Virus record (IMG/VR): IMGVR_UViG_2695420480_000007
Length of the DNA: 13,918 nt
Source of the DNA: a virus
Lineage: Duplodnaviria > Heunggongvirae > Uroviricota > Caudoviricetes
Strand: one strand, 5' to 3'
Position numbers and translations under genes: made by a program. Below, one piece after another: positions 1-13,918 of this stretch. The notes under the pieces were generated by a model, which was given only the letters and a program-made list of their open reading frames with translations, was not told where the DNA came from and did no database searches. The first letter of the stretch is position 1. Every line of letters begins with the position of its first letter.

Positions 1-993
1 TTATGCTAGAGTTGAATATTCTCCATTTCCTCGGTCGGTGAGTGTTAATTCGCGGCCATTTTCTGTAAATGTAATGGCATCCAGCAGGCTTTTTCCTGTT
101 ACAGCTATACCATATCCAAGGTTATCAATCTTTGAACTGTCCTCAGATGATATTGGTATTTGTACAAGCATACCAACAACAAGGCCGTATTTGTTAATTA
201 TAGGGCCACCGCTATTCCCCCCCTTAACCCTAGCATTGAATAATAAAAAGTCTTGTGAATCTAAGTAAGAGTGACCAGAACCAACAATTCGCCCCTTTGA
301 CAGTCGGACAAACGAATTTATATGCGAAACGTCATATAACTTTAATGCATCAAATCCTGGAATGGGTGGAAATCCTATTGATAAAATTTCATCCAGTACC
401 GAGGCTTTGGTTGAGACCTTAAGTGGTTGAATATTATCTTCATTCGGAATGGTTGTGAAAACTAAAGCGATATCAATACGTTCATCGTTAGATACAAAGA
501 TTTTATGTATTGGTAAAGCCTCACCACCAGCTCTAAGTATCCTGATACTCTTCATGTCTTCAATAACATGTCTGGCTGTAAATATCGTGTGGTTATTCCC
601 AACAATAAAACTAGTACCAAGATCATGTGAACCATCACTTTTTTCAACAACAACAGGTAAAACGGAAGGACTAAGGCGGTCTATGATTGACTCAAATCCA
701 TCAGCTATAAAATCATACTTTCCATATTTCGCATCTGATTCATTGAAATTCGGTGCGAAATAGCAACGGTCAAAAAGAGTATGTCCTGAAGACAATTCCA
801 TTAAAATACCTTCAGTTGCTAGCTTTTCACAATTGCGTATTAACTTCATCATATCGAGAGTATTTTCCCACTCAGGTTTGAGACGGGTCAGGCTCTCAAT
901 TGTTTTTCTCTCTTTTACGTTATCGTTTTCCGGTTTGTCATAAAAATATTTCACTATTTCTGTTGGTGTTACATATGTTTTTTTTATAGTCAT
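1..993 (-). CDS. Trypsin-like (S1/chymotrypsin-fold) serine protease with an N-terminal domain of about 115 aa of unknown function
   Basis: Track ORF 1..1047(-) starts at a GTG with no SD; first in-frame ATG is at 993 (MTIKK...) with a weak GGG 7 nt upstream, so 993 is preferred and 1047 is the alternative. Ordered motifs TARHV (His), DIALV (Asp), GNSGGP (Ser) fit an S1 catalytic triad. Stop TAA at 1-3, so the gene is complete in the window. AT-rich. Confidence 0.7.
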   Translation of the reverse strand: MTIKKTYVTPTEIVKYFYDKPENDNVKERKTIESLTRLKPEWENTLDMMKLIRNCEKLATEGILMELSSGHTLFDRCYFAPNFNESDAKYGKYDFIADGFESIIDRLSPSVLPVVVEKSDGSHDLGTSFIVGNNHTIFTARHVIEDMKSIRILRAGGEALPIHKIFVSNDERIDIALVFTTIPNEDNIQPLKVSTKASVLDEILSIGFPPIPGFDALKLYDVSHINSFVRLSKGRIVGSGHSYLDSQDFLLFNARVKGGNSGGPIINKYGLVVGMLVQIPISSEDSSKIDNLGYGIAVTGKSLLDAITFTENGRELTLTDRGNGEYSTLA

Positions 994-1410
994 TTTTGTA
1001 CCCGCGATGACGTTATTCCATATATTTTTCTTTGTAGAAAATATCACTATTGCTGGTAAATGTTAAGTTCAGTGCTCGCACTAAAGCTGGATGATCAACG
1101 TCGCCCTCGTATGGAAATCAGGTAAGATTCATGTCTACTTGGGGTCTAGGGTAGACAGCATAAAAACGTACAATAGCGTTCGATTGGCTCTCACCCCCGC
1201 CTATAAACCATGAGGTTGATAGGGTAGTATCGTTAGGCAATAGTATACATGTAAGTATCCAACCTAATTGGTCTTGAGATTTCTAACTAACGTGTCGTTA
1301 TGTCCGCTTTTGGCACATAGCAGCCCCAGAGACAGTGGTGTAAAGTCATGGAGGGTCGGTGGGAGGATATTCAGTTTCATTCATGCCGAAATACGGTAAA
1401 ATCTATAATA

Positions 1411-1514
1411 GATGGAAATCATTCAATACTCGCACTATCGAAAGTCCACCATCCAGCCGCAGCAAGTTCTTGCATACGACGTGTCAGCGGGTTCAACTCC
1501 CGCCAGCTCCACCA
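1411..1514 (+). repeat. Copy 1 of a paralogous non-coding element of about 80 nt; its last 28 nt (1487..1514) match the tmRNA (ssrA) 3' end including a GGTTCAANTCC T-loop and CCA
   Basis: Ungapped alignment of 1411..1490 against 4081..4160 gives 68/80 identities. 1487..1514 = gcgggttcaactcccgccagctccacca, which I recall as the 3' terminus of E. coli tmRNA (from memory, not searched). Confidence 0.5.
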
Positions 1515-1639
1515 ATCATGATTGGACGGTGTAAGGACAACACCAACAAAAACAGGATGTTAGCAGTCTCAGCAGGACACCGACCAGACGGTGAGGAGAC
1601 AAAAAAGGATACGCAAAGGAGCCGCAGCTCCCGAGTGAT

Positions 1640-1669
1640 AAAAAAGCCCGCTTATGCGGGCTTTTTTTT
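1640..1669. terminator. Bidirectional intrinsic terminator
   Basis: aaaaaa-GCCCGC-ttat-GCGGGC-tttttttt: 6-bp GC stem, 4-nt loop, A-run 5' and T-run 3', so it reads as a terminator on both strands. It lies 10 bp past the Bro-N stop on the minus strand. Confidence 0.65.
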
Positions 1670-1678
1670 CCCTCAAGC

Positions 1679-2440
1679 TCACTGACGTGTTCTTGCCTCA
1701 ACTACTTTCTGGTATATAGCGATAGCTTCATCAACCAAAGCTAATGGATAGCAAGAATTTATATTCAATCCGGAGGGGCACTTAATTCTTTCTGCTCCAC
1801 GTTCACTACGCAATTTTTCACACCATTGCCAAAGCTCCTCAACCGAATAGGTATCCAAACCTAACTCCATCAATCGTTGAGGAACACTTCTGAACTGAGA
1901 CAAATCTCTTAAACTTTCTAACGAGTTAACTTTTAGTTCAACTTGGTTTACTCTACTTTCTAACTCTTCACGTTTTTCTATTTCCATTACCAATGCTTGA
2001 ACCGTCTGCTGCAGACTGTTAGCAAAAGCACTCAGTTCTGAACGTTCTTGCTTAGGTGGCGGAGGATATACACCAAATTCACGAATAGACGGAAGGACCT
2101 GATGAAAAAGCCAGCGTTGGAATTTTTTCCCCGCAGCAGTAGTATCCTGAGCAAGTACTCTATATAGACCTGGTTCAGTAAGAAATACCTCAGAGATAGT
2201 TTCACCATCCACGACAAGAGAAACATTCCTAAACTCATCTGGATCTAAAGTTTTTATTACCGCTCTTATTACAGTGAGCAAGCTTTGAGAAGTCTTTCCA
2301 TCCAGTTTTCTGTTCTCAGCAGAAAGCGTTCTTAGCACATCTGAAAGTGAAACAAAAATCTGCCCTTTTTCATTCATGCTACGGATATAATTTTCTCCAC
2401 ACTCTCCTTCGTAGCATAATTGTAACAAATTCTTTTGCAC
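1679..2440 (-). CDS. Bro-N domain protein (phage antirepressor-like) with coiled-coil middle and C-terminal domain
   Basis: 253-aa ORF. N-terminal region (…IFVSLSDVLRTL…EPGLYRVLAQDTTAAGKKFQRWLFHQVLPSIREFG) has the Bro-N pattern. GTG start at 2440 preceded by AAGGAGGGG with 7-nt spacing; the nearby ATG is out of frame. Confidence 0.65.
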   Translation of the reverse strand: MQKNLLQLCYEGECGENYIRSMNEKGQIFVSLSDVLRTLSAENRKLDGKTSQSLLTVIRAVIKTLDPDEFRNVSLVVDGETISEVFLTEPGLYRVLAQDTTAAGKKFQRWLFHQVLPSIREFGVYPPPPKQERSELSAFANSLQQTVQALVMEIEKREELESRVNQVELKVNSLESLRDLSQFRSVPQRLMELGLDTYSVEELWQWCEKLRSERGAERIKCPSGLNINSCYPLALVDEAIAIYQKVVEARTRQ

Positions 2441-2463
2441 GCCATCCCCTCCTTTTTTTATGG

Positions 2464-2491
2464 ATTATACATCCTATAAACATGTTGTCAC
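2464..2491 (-). promoter_or_regulatory. Putative sigma70 promoter for the Bro-N gene
   Basis: On the minus strand: -35 GTGACA (plus 2486..2491), 16-nt spacer, -10 TATAAT (plus 2464..2469), followed by the SD and GTG start. Confidence 0.4.
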
Positions 2492-2718
2492 CGAAAGGGA
2501 AAAGCATAAACCCAATTTATGTTCCACAAGATGTTCAAAAATCAAACAACCATATAGCTGAGGAGCACAAAAGAGCAAAAGTTTACCAACCCCATATATC
2601 CATACAGCACATAAAATTGACACTACATATGGTATTTTTTAAGTTACGCCTTGCACCATTTCATGATTTTATGTAGATTGTCATCACACGCTGAGATTAA
2701 AAAATTCTACAATTTTTG

Positions 2719-2747
2719 TTGATCTTGAGTTTGGTTTTTAGTATAAG
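2719..2747 (+). promoter_or_regulatory. Putative sigma70 promoter for the XRE/ImmA operon
   Basis: -35 TTGATC (2719..2724), 17-nt spacer, -10 TATAAG (2742..2747), then SD AGGAGG (2762..2767) and ATG at 2774. Confidence 0.45.
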
Positions 2748-2773
2748 TGAGCATGGATTGTAGGAGGCGCAAC

Positions 2774-3124
2774 ATGGTAACTAGCTTTGGTAAGACTCTC
2801 AGAAAAATGAGAATAGACCGGGGTATGGTGCTCAAAAATATGGCTGATCTGTTAGGCGTTAGTTCGGCTTACTTATCCGCCATTGAATTAGGCAAAAGAG
2901 CTATACCGGACTCATTAGTAAATACGATTGCAACAACTTTTGAGCTTAGCGGACAAGACATCATCAATCTCAAGAAACAGGCAGAGATTTCTCAACCGTC
3001 CATTAAGGTTGATATGTCGGATGCAAATGAGCAGAACAAAGAACTAATGCTTGTTTTTGCTCGTAAATTTAAGGACCTGAGTCCAGAGCAACTCGATAAG
3101 CTTAATAAAATGTTAAAGGACTGA
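2774..3124 (+). CDS. XRE-family (Cro/CI-type) helix-turn-helix transcriptional regulator
   Basis: Track ORF 2747..3124; the likely start is ATG 2774, 6 nt after a perfect AGGAGG. HTH signature FGKTLRKMRIDRGMVLKNMADLLGVSSAYLSAIELGKR. Confidence 0.8.
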   Translation: MVTSFGKTLRKMRIDRGMVLKNMADLLGVSSAYLSAIELGKRAIPDSLVNTIATTFELSGQDIINLKKQAEISQPSIKVDMSDANEQNKELMLVFARKFKDLSPEQLDKLNKMLKD

Positions 3125-3127
3125 ATA

Positions 3128-3661
3128 ATGATTGCGAAACGAGAACTTGGCCATCGCGTTTCACCTCTCAGCACCAGCATGATTAAATCATACGCTCATC
3201 GTCTGAGAGACGTTCTTCAGATATCAAATCACACATATCTGAGACTGGATGTATTACTAGAAGGTCTTATGGCCTCAGAAAGCATTGAGCTAGAAATTGT
3301 TGAAGATCATGAACTGCCCAAACGCTATGCAGTGACTTATCCAGATAAGAACAAAATTGTTTTACAGCGATCTGTTTACGATGCAGTGTGCAATGGTGAG
3401 AACCATGCGAGATTCACTGTTGCGCATGAACTTGGTCATTTAGTCATGCATCGCAATCAAAGTATCTATGCACGTAATAAGACTAGTGGAGGGCATAAAA
3501 TCTATGAAGACAGCGAATGGCAAGCAGATGTTTTTGCAAGCCACTTCTTAATTGACTCAAGACTAGTTTTGCCCACAATGACTGTTGAAGATATAAGCAA
3601 AACATTTGGTGTCAGTCAACAAGCGGCTGAAACTTGGATGAGAAAAAATGCAAAAAGATAA
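3128..3661 (+). CDS. ImmA/IrrE-family (COG2856-like) zinc metallopeptidase
   Basis: 177-aa ORF starting 4 nt after the XRE stop (operonic). HEXXH motif in FTVAHELGHLVMH with downstream SEWQADVFASHFL, typical of ImmA/IrrE anti-repressor proteases. Confidence 0.8.
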   Translation: MIAKRELGHRVSPLSTSMIKSYAHRLRDVLQISNHTYLRLDVLLEGLMASESIELEIVEDHELPKRYAVTYPDKNKIVLQRSVYDAVCNGENHARFTVAHELGHLVMHRNQSIYARNKTSGGHKIYEDSEWQADVFASHFLIDSRLVLPTMTVEDISKTFGVSQQAAETWMRKNAKR

Positions 3662-3668
3662 CGAAAAA

Positions 3669-3691
3669 GCCAGCGAACCGCTGTCGCTGGC
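3669..3691 (+). other. Hairpin just after the ImmA stop; possible weak terminator or protein-binding palindrome
   Basis: GCCAGCG-aaccgctgt-CGCTGGC: 7-bp stem, 9-nt loop, but no clear T-run after it. Confidence 0.3.
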
Positions 3692-3786
3692 TTCTCCTAT
3701 CGTAAGCAAATACGAAAAACTTGGCGGTTGTGAGTATACGCTTACCTTAGGTTTTGTCAACAGCGAAACTTTACAGGTAACACGAT

Positions 3787-3930
3787 ATGACCATTGAAAA
3801 AGCTGTATCTGAGGAATACATCACAATTTACCGTCCTTTTATTACGGTCAAAGGTAAACGGATCTTTGCTCGTCAAAAAGGCTTGGCAGCCTTTCCTATC
3901 AAAATTCCTGCCTCTAAGTATCGAGGATAA
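3787..3930 (+). CDS. Small hypothetical basic protein (47 aa), possible micro-gene
   Basis: ATG directly after an in-frame stop (3778..3780); weak AGGT 9 nt upstream; followed by a terminator hairpin. Below the ORF-track length cutoff. No recognisable domain. Confidence 0.25.
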   Translation: MTIEKAVSEEYITIYRPFITVKGKRIFARQKGLAAFPIKIPASKYRG

Positions 3931-3944
3931 TCTTTGCTAATCTT

Positions 3945-3970
3945 AGGCCCTTTTCTAGGGCCTTTTATTA
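3945..3970 (+). terminator. Intrinsic terminator-like hairpin
   Basis: AGGCCC-ttttcta-GGGCCT followed by TTTTATT. Confidence 0.4.
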
Positions 3971-4079
3971 CACTTCTGTTACGCGCACCACAGATAGAGT
4001 TTCAGCTAAAACTTTTGTTCATACCTAGGAGTCTGCTGACGAGTGGTTTGTTCACTAATAAACACGTAAAAACGGTAAC

Positions 4080-4165
4080 GGCTGGACATCATTCAATATT
4101 CGCACTATTGGAAGTTCACCAGCCAGCCACAGCACGTTCTTGCATACAACGTGCCTGCGGTTTTT
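4080..4165 (+). repeat. Copy 2 of the paralogous element of about 80 nt
   Basis: 85% ungapped identity to 1411..1490. Flanking stem GGCTGG (4080..4085) / CCAGCC (4119..4124) corresponds to GATGG/CCATC in copy 1, which is one compensatory A-T to C-G change. Confidence 0.5.
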
Positions 4166-4255
4166 GAGACCGGTCCGATCATCAAACGAAACATAAAATT
4201 AGCTCACACTATGAGGAAAAGTATCTTTTTTTACTATGTAAATTCAAAGGATTAG

Positions 4256-5125
<870 letters not shown>

Positions 5126-5147
5126 GTCTTTAAGTGATAAGCATAAA

Positions 5148-5186
5148 CCGCAGCACGATCTTCTTGCATACGACGTGCTACGGTTT
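5148..5186 (+). repeat. Copy 3 (shortened) of the paralogous element, between the GIY-YIG stop and the invertase stop
   Basis: ccgcagcacgatcttcttgcatacgacgtgctacggttt aligns with the core of copies 1 and 2. It contains a potential 6-bp stem AGCACG/CGTGCT. A mirrored copy lies at 8275..8313 inside the inverted duplication. Confidence 0.45.
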
Positions 5187-5740
5187 CATTTATCTCCGAC
5201 CGGAAACTTCTTATACAGTGTCGATATACCAACATCATAGATGATCGCCACCTTCTGGCGAGGAACGCCTGATGCAATTAATCGCCCGGCCTGCGCCCAT
5301 TGTTCTGGTGTAAGTTTGGGACGACGTCCCCCAATTCGTCCCTGTGCGCGAGCAGCTTCCAGTCCAGCTTTTGTTCGTTCAACAATCAGTTCTCGTTCCA
5401 TTTCAGCCAAGGCACCCATCACATGAAAGAAAAAACGCCCCATCGGTGTGCTGGTATCAATAGCATCCGTCAGGCTGCGAAAATTAACGCCACGTTCGCG
5501 CAACTCCTCAACCAGAATGACCAGATGCCGCATACTACGCCCCAGCCGATCCAGCTTCCAGACAACCAGAGTGTCACCTGCCGATAATGTCCTGAGCAGT
5601 TTTTTCAGTCCCGGCCTTTCGGACTTTGTACCGCTTATCTTGTCTTCAAAAATAAGCTCGCATCCTGCACAGTTCAGCGCATTACGTTGTAGATCTGTGT
5701 TCTGGTCATTTGTTGATACGCGTACATAGCCAATAAGCAT
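5186..5740 (-). CDS. Serine recombinase, DNA invertase of the Pin/Gin/Hin/Cin (Din) family, copy 1
   Basis: Track ORF 5186..5776; the likely start is the internal Met giving MLIGYVRVSTNDQ… (184 aa, the Din-invertase length), with catalytic-Ser region YVRVST and a C-terminal HTH. 100% identical to copy 2. Confidence 0.85.
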   Translation of the reverse strand: MLIGYVRVSTNDQNTDLQRNALNCAGCELIFEDKISGTKSERPGLKKLLRTLSAGDTLVVWKLDRLGRSMRHLVILVEELRERGVNFRSLTDAIDTSTPMGRFFFHVMGALAEMERELIVERTKAGLEAARAQGRIGGRRPKLTPEQWAQAGRLIASGVPRQKVAIIYDVGISTLYKKFPVGDK

Positions 5741-5794
5741 GGTAGATCCCCCTGACAAAAGCAGGAATGATGCCATTTGCTCGTTATTTCTGCA

Positions 5795-5820
5795 TTTTCA
5801 TAAATGTTGGTTTGGGAGAA
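5795..5820. other. 26-bp Din-invertase crossover site (hix/gix-like), site 1
   Basis: TTTTCATAAATG-TT-GGTTTGGGAGAA; the inner half-site is the reverse complement of TTCTCCCAAACC. Exact inverted copy of site 2; the duplication boundary falls at its central dinucleotide. Confidence 0.5.
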
Positions 5821-6288
5821 GGTTCGGCATTACCCGTTGGTGTGCCTGTTCCGTGGCCTTCCGCCACTCCGCCAACAGGCTGGCTGAAATGCAACGGCGC
5901 GGCTTTCTCTGCTGAAGAATACCCGGAACTGGCAAAGGCTTATCCAACAAATAAATTACCTGATTTACGCGGTGAGTTTATTCGTGGCTGGGATGACGGG
6001 CGCGGTATTGATGCAGGACGTGTTTTATTGAGTATTCAGGCCGGAATGCTGGAAAAGCACCGTCATCCTGTTGTCGCCAACGATGGGTATGACTCAAAAG
6101 AGGAATGGGAACTGGCGACAATCTTCAGAAGAGCATATACGCAAGGCAGGGGGCTTGATGCTGCCGCTGCCGGAGGGAGTCTGATCCCATCACCGACACT
6201 TCATTCACGAGGGAGTATCGGTAATACTGGCGGGAGTGAAACCCGTCCACGAAATATTGCATTTAACTTTATCGTGAGGGCTGCATAA
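5809..6288 (+). CDS. Silent tail-fibre C-terminal variable cassette (Sv'), start-less in the current orientation
   Basis: Track ORF 5767..6288; its first 18 aa are read-through across the crossover site. The cassette (…GWLKCNGAAFSAEEYPELAKAYP…LPDLRGEFIRGWDDGRGID…) resembles Mu/P1/e14-type fibre C-terminal domains. Its stop overlaps the tfa' start (TAATG). Confidence 0.6.
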   Translation, partial: GLGEGSALPVGVPVPWPSATPPTGWLKCNGAAFSAEEYPELAKAYPTNKLPDLRGEFIRGWDDGRGIDAGRVLLSIQAGMLEKHRHPVVANDGYDSKEEWELATIFRRAYTQGRGLDAAAAGGSLIPSPTLHSRGSIGNTGGSETRPRNIAFNFIVRAA

Positions 6289-6890
6289 TGGATAACGCCG
6301 TATTAAATAGCGAGCTTATTGCCACGAAGGCGGGGAATATTACCGTCTATAACTATGATGGTGAAACTCGGGAATATATGTCTACTTCAAATGAATATCT
6401 TGCCATTGGTGTCGGTATCCCTGCATATTCCTGTTTAGATGCCCCTGGCACACATAAGGCGGGTTATGCTATCTGCCGTTCGATTGATTTAAACTCATGG
6501 GAATATGTGCCAGACCATCGCGGTGAAATCGTCTATAACACCGAAACGAGAGACGCCAAAGAAATCACAGCTCCGGGTGATTATCCTGAAAATACAACCA
6601 CTATCGCCCCGTTAACGCCATACGATAAATGGGATGGTAAGAAATGGGTGACCGATACTGAGGCACAGCATAGCGCCGCAGTAGAAGCGGCAGAAGCACA
6701 GCGCCAGTTGCTGATTGATGCTGCTATGGCTTCCATCAGTCTGATTCAGCTGAAATTGCAGGCCGGGCGGAAGCTGACGCAGGCAGAAATCACCCGCCTT
6801 AACGCTGTACTGGATTACATTGACGCGGTGACGGCAACAAATACCAGCACAGCGCCGGATGTCATCTGGCCTGAATTGCCGGAGGCGTAG
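6288..6890 (+). CDS. Tail fibre assembly protein (Tfa', 200 aa; U'-like)
   Basis: 200-aa ORF translationally coupled to Sv'; Tfa-like composition and C-terminus. Converges on and overlaps the opposite-strand tfa by 29 nt, as in Mu G and e14 P segments. Confidence 0.75.
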   Translation: MDNAVLNSELIATKAGNITVYNYDGETREYMSTSNEYLAIGVGIPAYSCLDAPGTHKAGYAICRSIDLNSWEYVPDHRGEIVYNTETRDAKEITAPGDYPENTTTIAPLTPYDKWDGKKWVTDTEAQHSAAVEAAEAQRQLLIDAAMASISLIQLKLQAGRKLTQAEITRLNAVLDYIDAVTATNTSTAPDVIWPELPEA

Positions 6891-7293
6891 GCCATTCAAT
6901 ATCTGGATCACTGGAGGTATCAATCAGTTCCAGTGCGTCCAGATAATCCAGCCACAGATTATATTGCGCCAGTTCCTCGCCTTTCAGACGACCAATAGCG
7001 GCTTTACCGGGCCATTGCTTACTGTTCATGTATTCGTTGGCCTGATTAACTAATCGCTGTTTATTTGATTCAGCGATTGTGATTAATTCTTCGCTGGTAA
7101 GTGGTGGCGCATCCTGCCATATTGGAAAACCATTTTTATCTGAACCAAGTATTTTACCATCAGGCCATGCAACTCCTGCGAACTCAGAATAAATAGTAAA
7201 GTTTATTTTCGTAGCGTTCTCAGGAATGGTTTGGCTATCTGGTGAAATATAAAACCCCGAATCAGAGGGATTAAAATAATATGTCTTTTCCAT
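6862..7293 (-). CDS. Tail fibre assembly protein (Tfa, 143 aa; U-like), copy A
   Basis: 143-aa ORF, identical to 8700..9131. ATG 2 nt after the stop of the upstream Sv cassette. Confidence 0.75.
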   Translation of the reverse strand: MEKTYYFNPSDSGFYISPDSQTIPENATKINFTIYSEFAGVAWPDGKILGSDKNGFPIWQDAPPLTSEELITIAESNKQRLVNQANEYMNSKQWPGKAAIGRLKGEELAQYNLWLDYLDALELIDTSSDPDIEWPTPPAIQAR

Positions 7294-7295
7294 AG

Positions 7296-7653
7296 TTAAT
7301 ACCCCACAGCCATCCAGTAAATTGAATTTGTTGTAGCAGAAGTGTAAGTAAATCTGATTTTAGTTCTGTTGGTACTTCCAATATCAAAGCCCACAGAACG
7401 GGCAGAAGGATCATTAGTTGAAATAAGAGCATTTACCGAACGACAAGCCGCAGGGAAAGCTACAGGTAATGTTATATCAACTGTTCCAACACTTCCTCCG
7501 GTTGGTGAGACAGAAAAACTCCCCCATTGAATAATCATCCCCCCAGGTAATTTCTGGTATCCATTGGCGGTCAATGAGTTACCAAAGCTGTTCATATCCG
7601 GTACCTGATTTTCTCCTGTCCCCACATTCCTTTTTGCTGCTTCTCCCAAACCA
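7296..7653 (-). CDS. Tail-fibre variable cassette Sv, duplicate copy not fused to a constant region (silent)
   Basis: Track ORF 7296..7694; identical to the C-terminal 118 aa of the stf gene at 9134..9781. Here the sequence upstream of the site is the invertase leader, not the fibre constant region. Confidence 0.6.
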
Positions 7654-7666
7654 ACATTTATGAAAA
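7641..7666. other. 26-bp Din-invertase crossover site, site 2
   Basis: TTCTCCCAAACC-AA-CATTTATGAAAA. The left half plus central AA (7641..7654) is identical to site 3 (9479..9492); the right half is identical to the outer half of site 1. Confidence 0.5.
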
Positions 7667-7720
7667 TGCAGAAATAACGAGCAAATGGCATCATTCCTGC
7701 TTTTGTCAGGGGGATCTACC

Positions 7721-8275
7721 ATGCTTATTGGCTATGTACGCGTATCAACAAATGACCAGAACACAGATCTACAACGTAATGCGCTGAACTGTGCAGGATG
7801 CGAGCTTATTTTTGAAGACAAGATAAGCGGTACAAAGTCCGAAAGGCCGGGACTGAAAAAACTGCTCAGGACATTATCGGCAGGTGACACTCTGGTTGTC
7901 TGGAAGCTGGATCGGCTGGGGCGTAGTATGCGGCATCTGGTCATTCTGGTTGAGGAGTTGCGCGAACGTGGCGTTAATTTTCGCAGCCTGACGGATGCTA
8001 TTGATACCAGCACACCGATGGGGCGTTTTTTCTTTCATGTGATGGGTGCCTTGGCTGAAATGGAACGAGAACTGATTGTTGAACGAACAAAAGCTGGACT
8101 GGAAGCTGCTCGCGCACAGGGACGAATTGGGGGACGTCGTCCCAAACTTACACCAGAACAATGGGCGCAGGCCGGGCGATTAATTGCATCAGGCGTTCCT
8201 CGCCAGAAGGTGGCGATCATCTATGATGTTGGTATATCGACACTGTATAAGAAGTTTCCGGTCGGAGATAAATGA
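7721..8275 (+). CDS. Serine recombinase, DNA invertase of the Pin/Gin/Hin/Cin family, copy 2
   Basis: Track ORF 7685..8275; ATG 7721 preceded by AGGGGG 8 nt upstream. Identical to copy 1 in inverted orientation. Confidence 0.85.
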   Translation: MLIGYVRVSTNDQNTDLQRNALNCAGCELIFEDKISGTKSERPGLKKLLRTLSAGDTLVVWKLDRLGRSMRHLVILVEELRERGVNFRSLTDAIDTSTPMGRFFFHVMGALAEMERELIVERTKAGLEAARAQGRIGGRRPKLTPEQWAQAGRLIASGVPRQKVAIIYDVGISTLYKKFPVGDK

Positions 8276-8313
8276 AACCGTAGCACGTCGTATGCAAGAA
8301 GATCGTGCTGCGG
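8275..8313 (-). repeat. Inverted copy of element copy 3
   Basis: Reverse complement of 5148..5186, lying within the 985-bp inverted duplication. Confidence 0.45.
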
Positions 8314-8335
8314 TTTATGCTTATCACTTAAAGAC

Positions 8336-8625
8336 TCAAAAATCAGGTGAGTAACGGACCGGGGACATAGCTCCTTTTTTTCTTAATTCATCTGGTATTT
8401 TTTTTCCAAGATAAAGATTTGCTATTTCAGGTGGGGCTTCTCGACCTTCAAAACCATAGCGAGAACTTTGTGTTGCCTCAAAGTCCGGATCCTCGTCCCA
8501 GTATTTCATCGTAGGGAAATTTTCACGTGTTGATTTGAGCCATTTATCAGCAATGAAAACCCCTCGAACGATCCCCCTTACAGTAGCAAGAATGACTTCT
8601 GCTTGGCTGGCGCGAGAGACATTAA
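8336..8625 (-). pseudogene. 3' fragment of the GIY-YIG gene (codons 180..274), inverted duplicate
   Basis: Reverse complement of 4836..5125, exact. Track ORF 8336..8761 is a chimera of this with antisense tfa sequence. Confidence 0.7.
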
Positions 8626-8728
8626 AATCACCCGCCTTAACGCTGTACTGGATTACATTGACGCGGTGACGGCAACAAATACCAGCACAGCGCCGGATGT
8701 CATCTGGCCTGAATTGCCGGAGGCGTAG
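8625..8728 (+). pseudogene. 3' fragment of tfa' (direct duplicate of 6787..6890)
   Basis: Identical to the end of the 200-aa tfa' gene but lacks its 5' 500 bp; begins at the non-site junction at 8625. Confidence 0.6.
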
Positions 8729-9131
8729 GCCATTCAATATCTGGATCACTGGAGGTATCAATCAGTTCCAGTGCGTCCAGATAATCCAGCCACAGATTAT
8801 ATTGCGCCAGTTCCTCGCCTTTCAGACGACCAATAGCGGCTTTACCGGGCCATTGCTTACTGTTCATGTATTCGTTGGCCTGATTAACTAATCGCTGTTT
8901 ATTTGATTCAGCGATTGTGATTAATTCTTCGCTGGTAAGTGGTGGCGCATCCTGCCATATTGGAAAACCATTTTTATCTGAACCAAGTATTTTACCATCA
9001 GGCCATGCAACTCCTGCGAACTCAGAATAAATAGTAAAGTTTATTTTCGTAGCGTTCTCAGGAATGGTTTGGCTATCTGGTGAAATATAAAACCCCGAAT
9101 CAGAGGGATTAAAATAATATGTCTTTTCCAT
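8700..9131 (-). CDS. Tail fibre assembly protein (Tfa, 143 aa), copy B, cognate to the expressed fibre
   Basis: Identical to 6862..7293; directly downstream of the stf gene. Confidence 0.8.
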
Positions 9132-9133
9132 AG

Positions 9134-9781
9134 TTAATACCCCACAGCCATCCAGTAAATTGAATTTGTTGTAGCAGAAGTGTAAGTAAATCTGATTTTA
9201 GTTCTGTTGGTACTTCCAATATCAAAGCCCACAGAACGGGCAGAAGGATCATTAGTTGAAATAAGAGCATTTACCGAACGACAAGCCGCAGGGAAAGCTA
9301 CAGGTAATGTTATATCAACTGTTCCAACACTTCCTCCGGTTGGTGAGACAGAAAAACTCCCCCATTGAATAATCATCCCCCCAGGTAATTTCTGGTATCC
9401 ATTGGCGGTCAATGAGTTACCAAAGCTGTTCATATCCGGTACCTGATTTTCTCCTGTCCCCACATTCCTTTTTGCTGCTTCTCCCAAACCAAGGTTTTCG
9501 AGAGCCGTTTTCACCGTGCCATCCGATTTGATATCGCCAAACGGATTCTTGCGGCTTAACAGCAGCGCGCGAAGTGCGGTAAGTAACTGGTCGTGCCGCC
9601 CCTTCTCCAGGCTGGCACCGGATGCCTCCACCACACTGCAAAGTTCCTCCTGCAACATGTCAAAGTAGTCATCATCCAGATCGGTGGCAGGCGTGCCGGT
9701 CTGGGGGTTACCACGGGTAAAACCGTTCTTACCCGCGCCGAACTTATCCTTCTGCGCGGTTTTCGTGTCTATACGATGCAT
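9134..9781 (-). CDS. Side tail fibre protein (about 97-aa constant N-terminal region fused to the Sv variable region), 215 aa
   Basis: ATG at 9781 with GGAG 7 nt upstream. N-terminus [21 protein letters not shown]… looks like a short e14/Mu-type fibre constant part; the constant/variable junction (…ENLGLGE|AAKRN…) coincides with crossover site 3. Confidence 0.75.
9479..9504. other. 26-bp Din-invertase crossover site inside the stf gene (best palindrome), site 3
   Basis: TTCTCCCAAACC-AA-GGTTTTCGAGAG, close to hixL as I recall it (TTCTTGAAAACC-AA-GGTTTTTGATAA, from memory). Sits at the fibre constant/variable boundary. Confidence 0.6.
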
Positions 9782-9784
9782 GGA

Positions 9785-9916
9785 TTACTCCGGATAACCG
9801 GGGTTTTCACCCGGTGCCGACCGCGCACGGCGCATCACCAGCCGACGGGCATCACGCATATGACGCTGACCAATCGTGACAAACGCCCGCCGGACACGGG
9901 CGCGGTTAAAGCGCAT
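9785..9916 (-). CDS. Small Arg-rich hypothetical protein (43 aa), possible late-operon remnant
   Basis: ATG overlaps the end of the upstream reading frame; stop is 3 nt before the stf ATG. Not in the ORF track (short). Confidence 0.25.
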   Translation of the reverse strand: MRFNRARVRRAFVTIGQRHMRDARRLVMRRARSAPGENPGYPE

Positions 9917-9935
9917 CTCCGCGGGCTGCTGAAAA

Positions 9936-10235
9936 TCAACGTGCAAAAAGGAAGTCGCCATTGCTGCCTCCGTGACTCTGCGTAAATTCGCCCAGTTCCG
10001 TACACTCCAGCAGCAGAAAGCGCCGCGCCCCGTTCAGATCGCGCTGACGTTTCACCCGGTACACACTGTCACCGCAGACCACCTCATAATCAGCGGTGAT
10101 CCCCCGGCGGTAGCGAATGGTGATGTAATGGGTGATGGCGTCCCCGGTCTGCGCGGTTTCCTGCCAGGTGGTGGCACTGGTCTGGATAACCTTCGCCCAT
10201 GTCCGGAACGTAACCGGGTACCCTGGCGACGCGCC
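9936..10235 (-). pseudogene. 5'-truncated phage head-tail joining/adaptor-like gene fragment
   Basis: A frame with no start codon reads …VTFRTWAKVIQTSATTWQETAQTGDAITHYITIRYRRGITADYEVVCGDSVYRVKRQRDLNGARRFLLLECTELGEF…, resembling the head-tail joining family pattern. GC-rich (about 60%). Confidence 0.4.
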
Positions 10236-10453
10236 TTACGCGTTAACCAGCCTTCTGCTTCCAGCCGTGCGATAGCCGTTCTGACGGTACTCATCCCCGC
10301 GCCAATCTGACGGGCAATGGTTTCAATTGATGGCCAGCACACACCTTCGTCATTACTGAAATCAGCCAGGCGGGCCATAATTGCCACGCTGGATAATTTC
10401 ATGCCTGACGCTGCGCAACCATCCCATACATAGCCGGTTAATTTAGTGCTCAT
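10052..10453 (-). pseudogene. Chimeric ORF: authentic N-terminal HTH domain (about 77 aa) of a phage replication/regulatory protein, then out-of-frame read-through
   Basis: [13 protein letters not shown]…SIETIARQIGAGMSTVRTAIARLEAEGWLTRKARRQG is a clean winged-HTH N-terminus. After RQG (about 10220..10228) the frame reads low-complexity Pro/Arg/Gly text while another frame carries the head-tail joining fragment. Confidence 0.5.
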
Positions 10454-10664
10454 GACCGACCTCTATTTCCCTGAATTTACGACGAAACTGTTCGAGCGGG
10501 CTGAAGCACTCATGCTCATAGCCTTCACGGAGGTAGATAACCCGTTGTGTTTCCGGCTCCCAACGAATGACTCTGACGGGCACTCCGTAGTGATCTTTGA
10601 ACCAGCGATTAACTTGTCGCAAAGGACTGTCTCCTTCTGCCGGTTGAAATCCCCCACAGCCCAC
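10443..10664 (-). CDS. Small hypothetical protein (73 aa)
   Basis: GTG start; its stop overlaps the start of the downstream HTH gene by 11 nt (operonic). No domain recognised with confidence. Confidence 0.4.
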
Positions 10665-10764
10665 TCTGCAAAGCTGTGGGTTACAATTTCCCTGTCGGGG
10701 ACCTTGAAAACGTCAATATCACTCACTGGGCAGTAATGCCAAAAGCACCGGAGGCTGGAGCATA

Positions 10765-11070
10765 ATGACCACTTTTACCGACAAAGAACTGATTAAAGAA
10801 ATTAAAGAGCGTATCAGCAGCCTTGACGTGCGAGACGATATTGAGCGCCGTGCTTATGAAATCGCACTCCTATCTCTGGAAGTAGAACCAGATGAACGCG
10901 AAGCTTATGAATTATTCATGGAAAAGCGTTTTGGTGACTTAGTAGATCGTCGGAGAGCAAAAAACGGCGATAACGAATACATGGCATGGGATATGACTCT
11001 CGGTTGGATCGTCTGGCAGCAACGAGCTGGTATCCATTTCTCAACAATGTCACAGCAAGAGGTGAAATAA
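10765..11070 (+). CDS. Hypothetical early-region protein (101 aa)
   Basis: ATG 10765 with GGAG 4 nt upstream; stop TAA shares its A with the xis ATG (TAATG), indicating translational coupling. Confidence 0.55.
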
Positions 11071-11420
11071 TGGAGCCATACAGCCTCACACTCGATGAGG
11101 CCTGTCATTTTCTCAAGATATCCAGACCGACTGCCATTAACTGGATACGCACAGGGCGTCTTCAGGCAACACGCAAAGATCCCACTAAGAATAAATCTCC
11201 TTACCTCACAACACGACAAGCCTGCATTGCGGCTCTTCAGTCTCCGCTGCATACTGTCCAGGTGAGCGCGGGTGATGGCATAACAGAGGAAAGAAAATGT
11301 CACTCTTCCGCAGAGGTGAAATATGGTACGCCAGTTTCACATTGCCGAACGGTAAAAGATTTAAACAGTCTCTTGGAACAAAGGACAAAAGGCAGGCGAC
11401 AGAACTCCATGACAAGCTAA
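11070..11420 (+). CDS. xis: Excisionase (Xis), P22-like, 116 aa
   Basis: Internal start of track ORF 10986..11420; ATG 11070 preceded by GAGGTG. DNA-binding motif [26 protein letters not shown]. Overlaps int by 124 nt in another frame. Confidence 0.65.
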
Positions 11421-12460
11421 AGGCTGAAGCATGGCGGGTCAGCAAACTTGGTGAAATACCTGATATAACGTTCGAGGAAGCGTGTGTCAGGTGGCTTGAA
11501 GAGAAAGCACATAAAAAATCACTGGACGATGACAAAAGCCGGATCGGATTCTGGCTTCAACATTTCGCAGGAATGCAACTAAGAGACATTACTGAATCAA
11601 AAATTTATTCAGCAATGCAGAAAATGACGAACCGGCGTCATGAGGAAAACTGGAAACTCAGGGCAGAAGCATGCAGAAAAAAAGGGAAACCTGTTCCAGA
11701 ATACACGCCAAAACCAGCGTCCGTTGCAACGAAGGCTACGCATCTTTCATTTATAAAGGCCCTACTAAGAGCCGCAGAGCGTGAATGGAAAATGCTGGAT
11801 AAGGCACCAATTATTAAAGTGCCTCAACCAAAGAATAAACGGATCCGCTGGCTGGAGCCCCATGAAGCACAAAGGCTGATTGATGAATGTCCGGAGCCAT
11901 TAAAGTCTGTTGTTGAATTTGCACTGGCAACAGGCTTAAGACGCTCGAACATCATCAACCTTGAATGGCAACAAATAGATATGCAGCGCCGGGTGGCATG
12001 GATAAACCCGGAAGAGAGTAAATCAAACCGCGCAATTGGCGTTGCGCTGAATGATACTGCATGTCGCGTATTGAAAAAACAAATCGGGAATCATCACCGT
12101 TGGGTATTTGTGTACAAGGAAAGCTGTACCAAACCAGACGGAACGAAAGCGCCAACAGTAAGGAAGATGCGGTATGACGCAAACACAGCCTGGAAAGCGG
12201 CGCTGAGACGGGCTGGTATTGATGATTTCAGATTTCACGACTTGAGACACACCTGGGCAAGTTGGCTGGTTCAAGCCGGAGTCCCGTTGTCAGTGTTACA
12301 GGAAATGGGAGGCTGGGAGTCTATCGAAATGGTTCGTCGATATGCTCACCTTGCACCTAATCACCTTACCGAACACGCACGGCAAATAGACTCGATCCTG
12401 AACCCATCGGTCCCAAATTTGTCCCAGTCAAAAAATAAGGAAGGTACTAATGATGTGTAA
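11297..12460 (+). CDS. int: Tyrosine site-specific integrase, P22/thrW-targeting family
   Basis: 387-aa ORF with SD GAGGA. N-terminus [47 protein letters not shown] matches my recollection of P22 Int; C-terminal catalytic region has R…HDLRHT…Y. Ends 14 bp from the thrW 3' end. Confidence 0.9.
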
Positions 12461-12474
12461 CTTATTGATTTAAA

Positions 12475-12550
12475 TGGTGCCGATAATAGGAGTCGAACCT
12501 ACGACCTTCGCATTACGAATGCGCTGCTCTACCAACTGAGCTATATCGGC
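12475..12550 (-). tRNA. thrW: tRNA-Thr (anticodon CGU)
   Basis: Reverse complement gives a 76-nt tRNA: GCCGATATAGCTCAGTTGGTAGAGCAGCGCATTCGTAATGCG…GGTTCGACTCC…CACCA, with anticodon loop tTCGTaa, T-loop and encoded CCA. Adjacent to proA as in E. coli/Salmonella. Confidence 0.9.
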
Positions 12551-12664
12551 CCTGAAAGGACATGTTCACGAACGTGAATCACGGTGGACAAGGTTAAAAC
12601 TAACCGGGCGATGCGTCAATGGCCTTGTGAATCAAATGGCTACTTTTGCATCACCCGGTTTTAT

Positions 12665-13918
12665 TTACGCACGAATGGTGTAATCACCAATGCCGATCCA
12701 CTTGTAAGTGGTCAGTGCTTCCAGCCCCATTGGGCCACGCGCGTGGAGTTTTTGTGTGCTTACCGCCACTTCCGCACCCAGACCAAACTGGCCGCCGTCG
12801 GTAAAACGCGTAGAGGCGTTAACGTAAACAGCGGACGAATCCACTTCGTTAACAAAACGCTGGGCGTTGCGCATATCGCGGGTCAGGATCGCATCGGAGT
12901 GTTGTGTGCCGTGTTCACGAATATGGGCGATGGCATCGTCAAGATCGCTGACGATTTTGACGTTCAAATCTAATGACAGAAACTCATCGTCATACTCTTC
13001 GGCTTTAACAGCAACCACCTTCGCAGGGCCTGCCTGCAACTGCGCCAGTGCAGCTGCATCTGCGTGTAATGTCACGCCGCTTTCCGCCATTTGTTTGCTT
13101 AATGCGGGCAGGAAGCTATCGGCGATGTTTTTATTCACCAGCAACGTTTCAACCGTATTACATGTGCTCGGACGCTGAGTTTTCGCGTTGACGATCACTT
13201 TTAATGCTTCAGCGATCTCTACACTTTCATCAACGTAAATATGGCATACGCCTATACCACCTGTGATCACCGGGATTGTCGACTGTTCACGGCACAGTTT
13301 ATGCAAACCAGCGCCACCACGCGGGATCAGCATGTCGATGTATTTATCCATACGCAGCATTTCACTGACCAGCGCACGGTCAGGATTATCAATCGCCTGC
13401 ACGGCACCCGCCGGTAAGCCGCAGGATTTCAGGGCGTCCTGAATCACCGCCACCGTTGCAGCGTTAGTGCGACACGTTTCTTTGCCACCGCGCAGGATCA
13501 CCGCATTACCGGTTTTCAGGCACAGCGAAGCGACATCAACCGTCACGTTCGGGCGCGCTTCATAAATCACGCCAATAACCCCCAGCGGTACGCGACGACG
13601 CTCAAGACGCAGGCCGCTGTCCAGTACGCCGCCATCGATTACCTGCCCCACCGGATCGGCGAGGTTGCACACCTGACGTACATCGTCGGCAATGCCTTTC
13701 AGCCGTGCGGGCGTCAGTGCCAGACGGTCAAGCATCGCTTCGCTAAGGCCATTGGCTCGCGCGTCAGCAACATCCTGGGCGTTAGCGTTGAGGATGATTT
13801 CGCTTTGTGCTTCCAGTTCATCGGCGATTTTTTCCAGCACGCGATTTTTTTCGCGGCTGGAGAGTTGCGCTAATTTATACGAGGCTTGCTTCGCGGCAAT
13901 GCCCATTTGTTCCAGCAT
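12665..13918 (-). CDS. proA: Gamma-glutamyl phosphate reductase (glutamate-5-semialdehyde dehydrogenase)
   Basis: 417-aa ORF matching E. coli ProA as I recall it ([21 protein letters not shown]…); the start codon is the last three bases of the window. Confidence 0.95.

Follow-up and report, generated by a model that had tools for sequence, protein, structure and literature searches.

The window analysed here is a 13,918-nt stretch of DNA that contains a degraded prophage remnant located at a tRNA-Thr gene (thrW) of Escherichia coli. As supplied, it carries a tail-fibre switch of the Pin/pix type with an apparent three crossover sites and two invertase genes. The features are listed below by window coordinates and strand.

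4352..5125, +: LEM-3-like GIY-YIG gene, 257 aa, ATG at 4352 (PF22945)
5186..5740, −: pin, serine DNA invertase, 184 aa (Resolvase and HTH_7 domains); of the two copies, this is the one that is certainly real
5767..6288, +: Sv′, silent fibre C-terminal cassette (Collar, PF07484), read from the pin-adjacent leader; a homologous ORF is present in canonical loci
5795..5820, −: site 1, the pin-proximal pix, TTCTCCCAAACC AA CATTTATGAAAA on the − strand; 1 base off the K-12 e14 pin-proximal site
6288..6890, +: tfa′, assembly gene paired with Sv′ (PF02413)
6862..7293, −: tfa, assembly gene paired with Sv, first copy (PF02413)
7296..7694, −: pin-side leader joined to the Sv cassette (gp53-like C-terminus); an ordinary junction product of the other orientation
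7640..8624, +: inverted second copy of 4837-5821, with pin copy 2 (7721-8275, +) and a GIY-YIG 3′ fragment; 100% reverse-complement identity
7641..7666, +: site 2, exact reverse complement of site 1; junction as in the other orientation of a two-site locus
8625..8625, no strand: the only novel joint, where two contigs meet at a scaffold gap; the source record has an N here
8626..9492, +: second copy of 6788-7654, with the tfa′ 3′ end, tfa (8700-9131) and Sv; 100% direct identity
9134..9781, −: expressed fibre gene, 215 aa, constant part (9493-9781) plus Sv cassette (PF21882)
9479..9504, +: site 3, the constant-region pix, TTCTCCCAAACC AA GGTTTTCGAGAG; identical to the K-12 e14 site

Genes and crossover sites

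Pin has the domains of a small serine recombinase (Pfam PF00239, E = 1e-51, and PF02796). It aligns without gaps to K-12 PinE, with 175 of 184 residues identical (95%), and the first ~180 nt of its coding sequence are near-identical to functional K-12 pinE; switches of this class have a Fis-bound recombinational enhancer in cis in the 5′ part of the invertase gene. The GIY-YIG gene likewise adjoins pinE in L001, L007, L012, and L018-L025 and is an ordinary pin neighbour in this prophage family. The two cassettes provide alternative fibre C-termini (Collar and gp53-like) together with two Caudo_TAP assembly genes, and the constant N-terminus to which they are joined in frame lies outside the segment. 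Downstream of ymfQ, many canonical loci of the e14-like type encode exactly this 215-aa fibre protein. Exact matches to the 132-aa protein formed by the pin-side leader and Sv are indexed in 300 blocks, and all 10 places among the matches listed have one invertase. A promoter and terminator scan of 4700-10600 returned nothing informative upstream of the fibre gene. The "hin_1/hin_2" annotation of OR902851.1 was considered as a possible invertase duplication and rejected; the record is an excised e14 circle with pin split by a frameshift.

The window contains exactly three copies of the 14-nt core TTCTCCCAAACCAA, at 5807-5820 (−), 7641-7654 (+), and 9479-9492 (+). Chance alone would give about 0.17 matches, and three were reached in 0 of 200 shuffles. 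Sites 2 and 3 are direct repeats, and site 1 has the opposite orientation to both, as the original prediction described. Sites 1 and 3 form a pair of inverted 26-bp sites with a common core and central dinucleotide, as in a Pin-type switch, and the sites are genuine Pin crossover sites. Exactly two sites are present in 13 of the 14 relatives with a match; L009 has an additional weak match with 2 mismatches. The window also contains a perfect inverted repeat of 986 nt (4836-5821 and 7640-8625) and a perfect direct repeat of 868 nt (6787-7654 and 8625-9492), both with pix sites embedded. An 8-bp GC hairpin at 4827-4855 holds the 4836 breakpoint in its loop; the signal is weak (z = −2.7).

Crossover at the central dinucleotide was carried out in silico for each pair of sites and gave the products that had been predicted. 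After inversion between sites 1 and 3, the fibre has 256 aa in place of 215 aa; inversion between sites 1 and 2 has no effect on it. A crossover of site 2 with site 3 deletes 1838 bp exactly and gives the canonical locus, colinear with the loci of other E. coli. Enhancer-dependent invertases of the Pin class have intramolecular inversion as their exclusive outcome (PMC3798978), so a Pin-mediated deletion between the direct sites 2 and 3 would be disfavoured. If the repeats are real, the deletion would likely proceed by RecA recombination across the 868-nt direct repeat. In any case, the invertase could not have created the duplication.

Inversion in related genomes

The switch was followed in other sequences of the same family. 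An exact inversion of 1830 nt, with the 15-nt cores at its ends, separates the near-clonal isolates L001 and L015, and L031 and L032, of the same remnant lineage as the window, carry the switched junction. Contigs of the thrW remnant from other runs (Logan) either stop at 9478 or run on into the Sv′ cassette, and the fusion of the constant region to Sv′ that had been predicted was recovered in such contigs from runs DRR567778 and DRR567785. Both orientations thus occur in nature with breakpoints at the cores, as in a Pin-type system, and the thrW-remnant switch is still flipping in several sequenced isolates. For comparison, K-12 cultures are ~30% inverted (PMC12529663).

One invertase and two sites were found at 20 exact-protein places among the matches listed and in the 5,426 complete E. 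coli genomes searched; query coverage of at least 80% was reached in 0 of these places and genomes. The contigs of L033 and L034 break at inverted repeats. NZ_CP148396.1, deposited as a 1,830-bp "circular plasmid," consists of just this invertible segment and may be a second misassembly of this locus.

The joint at 8625

The public source record is GCA_001277415.1, scaffold CXZE01000004.1 (L030). It is identical to the window at all bases compared (52-13918) except 8625, which is "A" in the window and N in the record, the sole N among its 20,402 bases. The joint is therefore a scaffold gap rather than sequenced DNA, and the third site and second invertase lie across this gap. The position of the N coincides exactly with the ends of both perfect repeats, and 8626..9492 is the start of the second contig, directly after it. 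The sequence facts of the three-site locus proposed originally hold in the window, but its contiguity rests on the N. A multi-site shufflon has at least three crossover sites on one molecule, and here the third is linked only through the N. The isolated N and the accession type suggest that short reads and a scaffolder lie behind GCA_001277415.1.

All window substrings of up to 1,849 nt that do not span 8624-8626 are present in a reconstructed two-site locus, in orientation I or II, and for k = 31 to 1,840 each k-mer missing from that locus spans 8625. The data therefore fit one pin, two pix sites, and an invertible segment of ~1.85 kb present in both orientations.

A 40-mer over 8625 was not found in GTDB representative genomes or JGI metagenome contigs. 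A 301-nt query for the joint gave nothing beyond half-matches in the 5,426 complete E. coli genomes, with the joint in none. H41 and H42, which appeared "99% covered" by this query, were rejected as joint carriers; they are a different, pin-deleted variant. A 141-aa ORF across the joint was looked up and is not on record. A genuine duplication would have a sequenced novel joint; the base here is N, and its 40-mer is absent from the collections searched. The N proves that the joint is unsequenced, not that any duplication is absent.

Origin of the three-site arrangement

The three-site, two-invertase switch is very probably an assembly artefact, in which an ordinary e14-type Pin locus was captured in both orientations and joined across an N. 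The real locus would be an e14-type P segment with one pin and two inverted 26-bp pix sites, between which a segment of ~1.85 kb would hold two alternative C-termini for the fibre, each with an assembly gene of its own, and this segment would have been present in both orientations within the sequenced culture. We infer the following behaviour of the assembler and scaffolder. Contig one would run from pin through a site into Sv′, tfa′, tfa, and Sv and then, via reads of the other orientation, back into pin in reverse, so that the assembler most likely passed through the same DNA twice to produce the copy at 7640..8624. Contig two would begin inside the tfa/Sv cassette and run into the constant region. 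The scaffolder would then have joined the two with a single N, which, shown as A in the window, would produce the apparent third site, the second invertase, and the 1838-bp "duplication." What has been observed is that the joint holds an N, that a two-site locus is enough for all the other sequence, what the sites and the enzyme are, and that inversion occurs naturally at the cores. Against this account, the two contigs end at positions equivalent to 4837 and 6788, where no repeat boundary is obvious.

The chief alternative is a real tandem duplication of 1838 bp (the GIY-YIG 3′ part, pin, pix, Sv, and tfa) followed by Pin inversion. It would have arisen by illegitimate recombination at a time when the segment had the other orientation, after which Pin inverted between the outermost sites, leaving a three-site, two-invertase mini-shufflon with four isomers. 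The three-site sequence is, in silico, the exact product of one Pin inversion on a clean 1838-bp tandem duplication, so a real event is formally possible; conversely, inversion between sites 1 and 3 restores a perfect tandem repeat, with a 1839-nt exact run at a spacing of 1838. The four isomers can be reached by inversion, only one of them expressing the 256-aa alternative fibre, and Pin and its sites look functional from their sequence. The perfect repeat led us to favour this explanation at first, and it was demoted once the joint proved to be an N. The sole junction that could prove it is that N, and the perfect-repeat property follows automatically when an assembler goes through the same pair of graph segments twice. 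The 40-mer was found in none of the representative genomes and metagenome contigs, no complete E. coli genome contains the arrangement or the joint, and no sequence shorter than 1.85 kb needs the duplication. A literature search for tandem duplications at invertase loci found nothing relevant. We consider this event improbable.

Far less credible still is a one-step inverted duplication by template switching during replication, with a first switch at the 15-nt inverted pix cores and a second at 8625 through a jump at microhomology. The layout A-U-B-rc(A)-B-C fits the DUP-INV-DUP class of such events, and the 4836 breakpoint in the hairpin loop would suit it. The first junction, however, is exactly the normal Pin product, and the second "switch" is the N, with a placeholder base as its apparent 1-nt microhomology. 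Once the joint is taken as a contig end, the hairpin is probably coincidental, and it was set aside.

The original prediction, that the locus is a captured intermediate of shufflon dynamics, is equally hard to credit. Its three perfect cores have the orientations described and its products are correct on paper, but conservative two-site recombination cannot make a third site or a second invertase gene, Pin-class invertases are restricted to intramolecular inversion (PMC3798978), contiguity on one molecule is unsupported where the diagnostic joint is an N, and the remainder fits a two-site locus in two orientations.

Significance

The Pin/pix switch itself is already known and ordinary. Read as an assembly artefact, the arrangement carries little biological weight; behind it stands a decayed prophage with a textbook Pin/pix fibre switch. 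The proposed switching of host range is not supported for such a remnant, in which homology to canonical loci ends at 9796, 15 nt upstream of the fibre start, and ymfQ and the baseplate genes are absent. Recent evidence indicates that P-segment inversion in cryptic prophages can act in phage defence (PMC12529663), and a thrW-remnant switch that is still flipping agrees with this. If the duplication were true, the two-invertase switch would hold the constant-region fibre and the pin-leader-Sv chimera at once; the chimera would be the same kind of product as K-12 StfE2, which is reported to block adsorption of phage T2.

The case is chiefly a caution. A segment present in both orientations and a gap N turned into a base together yielded what looked like a coherent "shufflon intermediate," complete with predictions that seemed correct. 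Gap positions should be retained when raw windows are scanned, and an exact repeat of kilobase length should be treated as suspect if it ends where an N once stood.

Related systems

The closest known system is the K-12 e14 P segment (PinE; stfP-tfaP-tfaE-stfE), which shares the order constant part, site, Sv, tfa, tfa′, Sv′, site, pin. Its constant-side pix is identical and its pin-side pix differs by 1 base; identity is 95% for Pin and, at the DNA level, 98.8% for the constant region. Inversion by PinE and PinQ at the same repeats (TTGGTTTGGGAGAAGG) has been shown experimentally (PMC12529663). The two elements differ in location, e14 lying at icd and the window element at thrW, and beyond pin, where e14 has mcrA and the window the GIY-YIG gene. 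The constant-adjacent Sv and tfa of the window are of another sequence type (gp53-like) with no DNA match to stfP or tfaP, and its upstream ymfQ and baseplate genes have been deleted.

Gin with the G segment of Mu, Cin with the C segment of P1, and Hin with the H segment of Salmonella are enhancer- and Fis-dependent serine invertases, and the Mu and P1 switches also swap fibre C-termini. The window shares with them a small serine recombinase with HTH_7, 26-bp imperfectly palindromic sites, and a central dinucleotide (mechanism in PMC3798978). It differs in its element and cassettes and departs from the class in nothing.

With Min of p15B and the R64 shufflon (Rci), the window superficially shares more than two crossover sites and several isomers, but its third site is unsupported by sequenced DNA and what it has in addition duplicates existing DNA exactly. 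Min and the R64 shufflon combine several different cassettes with one recombinase gene, and the R64 enzyme is a tyrosine recombinase.

The window also resembles misassembled phase-variable regions of draft genomes, in which mixed orientations produce branching assembly graphs. The signs here are the breaks at inverted repeats (L033 and L034), the 1,830-bp "plasmid" (NZ_CP148396.1), and the N at the false join. It differs from them in presenting, once the N had become a base, a neat and biologically plausible pseudo-structure.

Genomic setting

The three-site, two-invertase fibre switch of the original prediction, there read as a possible captured intermediate of shufflon dynamics, is most likely a scaffolding artefact, and the real feature is a known Pin/pix inversion switch. 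The DNA is E. coli chromosome, in which a decayed prophage lies to the left of the integrase and thrW flank; the proA, thrW and integrase flanks match many E. coli genomes at 100% identity.

Features of the window (phage domains from Pfam)
12665-13918, minus strand: proA
12475-12550: tRNA-Thr (thrW)
11297-12460: tyrosine integrase
9134-9781, minus strand: fibre, 215 aa, gp53-like C-terminus (Pfam)
Two Caudo_TAP assembly genes (Pfam)
Collar-domain cassette (Pfam)
Serine recombinase (pin), Resolvase and HTH_7 domains, two copies (Pfam)
Farther left: LEM-3-like GIY-YIG gene; XRE/M78-peptidase pair; Bro-N protein; trypsin-like peptidase

The match to canonical loci stops at 9796, which lies 15 nt before the start codon (ATG) of the fibre gene. 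The element has also lost ymfQ and the baseplate genes, so the predicted host-range switching does not apply to it. From 9782 to 10750, deletions have left the remnant as a patchwork, with similarity to DNA annotated in other records as a phage head-closure gene (9797 to ~10220) and to an early-region HTH/DUF4222 pair (10215 to ~10700). A 133-aa HTH_36 open reading frame (ORF; 10052-10453) is specific to the remnant and is carried by only 6 contigs in the collection. Past the trypsin-peptidase/Bro/XRE-M78/GIY-YIG block, at about 5000-8000 of each of ten related loci (L017-L026), lies a variable slot that holds a type I restriction-modification system in L017, an OLD-family ATPase with UvrD helicase in L020, and a reverse transcriptase with a retron Ec48-type effector in L024; this prophage end looks like a defence-gene hotspot.

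Crossover sites and predicted products

The core TTCTCCCAAACCAA has three matches, at 5807-5820 (minus strand, site 1), 7641-7654 (plus, site 2) and 9479-9492 (plus, site 3), with ~0.17 expected by chance. Sites 1 and 2, each the exact reverse complement of the other, have the full 26-bp form TTCTCCCAAACC AA CATTTATGAAAA; that of site 3 is TTCTCCCAAACC AA GGTTTTCGAGAG. The sites are embedded in a 986-nt perfect inverted repeat (4836-5821 and 7640-8625) and in an 868-nt perfect direct repeat (6787-7654 and 8625-9492). An ORF across site 2 (7296-7694, minus strand) joins a pin-side leader (MMPFARYFCIFINVGLGE) to a gp53-like cassette.

At the sequence level the original prediction holds for the window as supplied, and its inversion logic was also right. 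With cuts placed in silico at the central dinucleotides, inversion between sites 1 and 3 replaces the 215-aa fibre with a 256-aa form, inversion between sites 1 and 2 has no effect on the fibre, and four isomers are reachable via inversion. The predicted deletion between sites 2 and 3 was reproduced at exactly 1838 bp, its product colinear with canonical loci; this "restored" locus is in effect the true one. Were the repeats real, such a deletion would be unlikely to be the work of Pin, because intramolecular inversion is the exclusive outcome for Fis/enhancer-dependent invertases (PMC3798978); recombination by RecA across the 868-nt repeat would be more plausible.

Origin of the three-site arrangement

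A single novel joint suffices for the whole arrangement: at 8625, the inverted block, with its 4836 end, abuts the direct block at the end that corresponds to 6787. The 133-aa ORF led to the source of the window, scaffold CXZE01000004.1 of GCA_001277415.1. This scaffold has the same two-invertase layout, and its reverse complement is identical to 52-13918 of the window save one base. That base is 8625, an 'A' in the window and in the scaffold an N, the sole one among 20,402 bases. Its position is precisely that of the novel joint, so what stands there is a join of two contigs and not sequenced DNA. The window text was evidently stripped of ambiguity codes, so that a reader working from sequence alone cannot see scaffold gaps. 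All window substrings of up to 1,849 nt that avoid 8624-8626 can be found in one or other orientation (I or II) of a two-site locus, so a read or pair of ordinary length cannot separate three sites from two sites in mixed orientation.

We first took the arrangement for a tandem duplication that Pin had subsequently rearranged, because in silico inversion between sites 1 and 3 yields a perfect 1838-bp tandem duplication; this model was displaced once 8625 proved to be N. The perfect repeat follows automatically from two blocks used twice, and a real duplication is now improbable, keeping a small share of belief because an N is absence of evidence and not absence of the joint.

Under the scaffolding explanation, the source assembly was presumably built from short reads with a scaffolding pipeline. 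Contig one would run through the flank, pin, site 1, Sv', tfa', tfa, Sv and site 2 and then pin reversed, as a walk that exits the segment via the other-orientation junction and retraces pin; contig two would start within tfa'/tfa and pass site 3 into the constant region. The GIY-YIG gene contains a GC-rich 8-bp hairpin at 4827-4855 (GCTGGCGC, 13-nt loop, GCGCCAGC; z = -2.7), and the first contig ends inside its loop, at the equivalent of 4837, probably by coincidence.

Logan contigs with the same thrW remnant come from other sequencing runs. Contigs L033 (representing 7 samples) and L034 end exactly at base 9478, where the core begins, and L031 (DRR567778) and L032 (DRR567785) continue through the core into sequence that is the reverse complement of the window from 5822 on, fusing the constant region to Sv'. 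The predicted switch junction is therefore real and corresponds to the normal alternative state of a two-site switch, and these contigs lend independent support to mixed orientations in the thrW-remnant lineage.

Comparison with known loci

Related loci in E. coli carry a single invertase and two sites, and their gene order is baseplate J, YmfQ, fibre, tfa, tfa', Sv', pinE and then GIY-YIG or McrA; they include loci encoding the exact same 215-aa fibre and the exact 132-aa ORF that spans site 2. The three-site arrangement was not found in complete E. coli genomes (5,426 searched), phage records or plasmid records. The cores are real crossover points: the near-clonal pig isolates L001 and L015 (NZ_CM149870.1 / NZ_CM149862.1; chromosomes of 5,270,553 and 5,270,552 bp) are separated by an exact 1830-nt inversion bounded by 15-nt cores (L001 6522-8352). 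Across this inversion the annotated fibre goes from 215 aa to 260 aa.

A deposited 1,830-bp circular 'plasmid' (L028, NZ_CP148396.1) consists only of the invertible segment (Sv', tfa', tfa, Sv). Its probable origin is an assembly-graph artefact at the same switch; an excised circle is a possible alternative. A variant of the locus in NZ_AP022245.1 (L029, 3688-6064) has lost pin, one site and half of the segment; its fibre is truncated and its GIY-YIG gene adjoins a tfa fragment, leaving the switch locked. OR902851.1 (L027, 15,193 bp, circular) was also deposited as a plasmid. It is the excised circular form of e14 and carries mcrA and an icd fragment, and frameshifts split its pin into hin_1 and hin_2.

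In K-12, the e14 segment has been shown experimentally to be inverted by PinE and PinQ at the same repeats (PMC12529663). The constant-side site of e14 is identical to that of the window, and the pin-side site differs by 1 base. The window Pin matches K-12 PinE at 175/184 residues, and its 5' coding region, where the enhancers of this invertase family lie, is near-identical to that of pinE. Chimeric Stf proteins of the e14 remnant have a reported role in phage defence, and one of them, StfE2, is reported to block T2 adsorption (PMC12529663). The site-2 ORF of the window has the same build as StfE2, with an unrelated cassette sequence.
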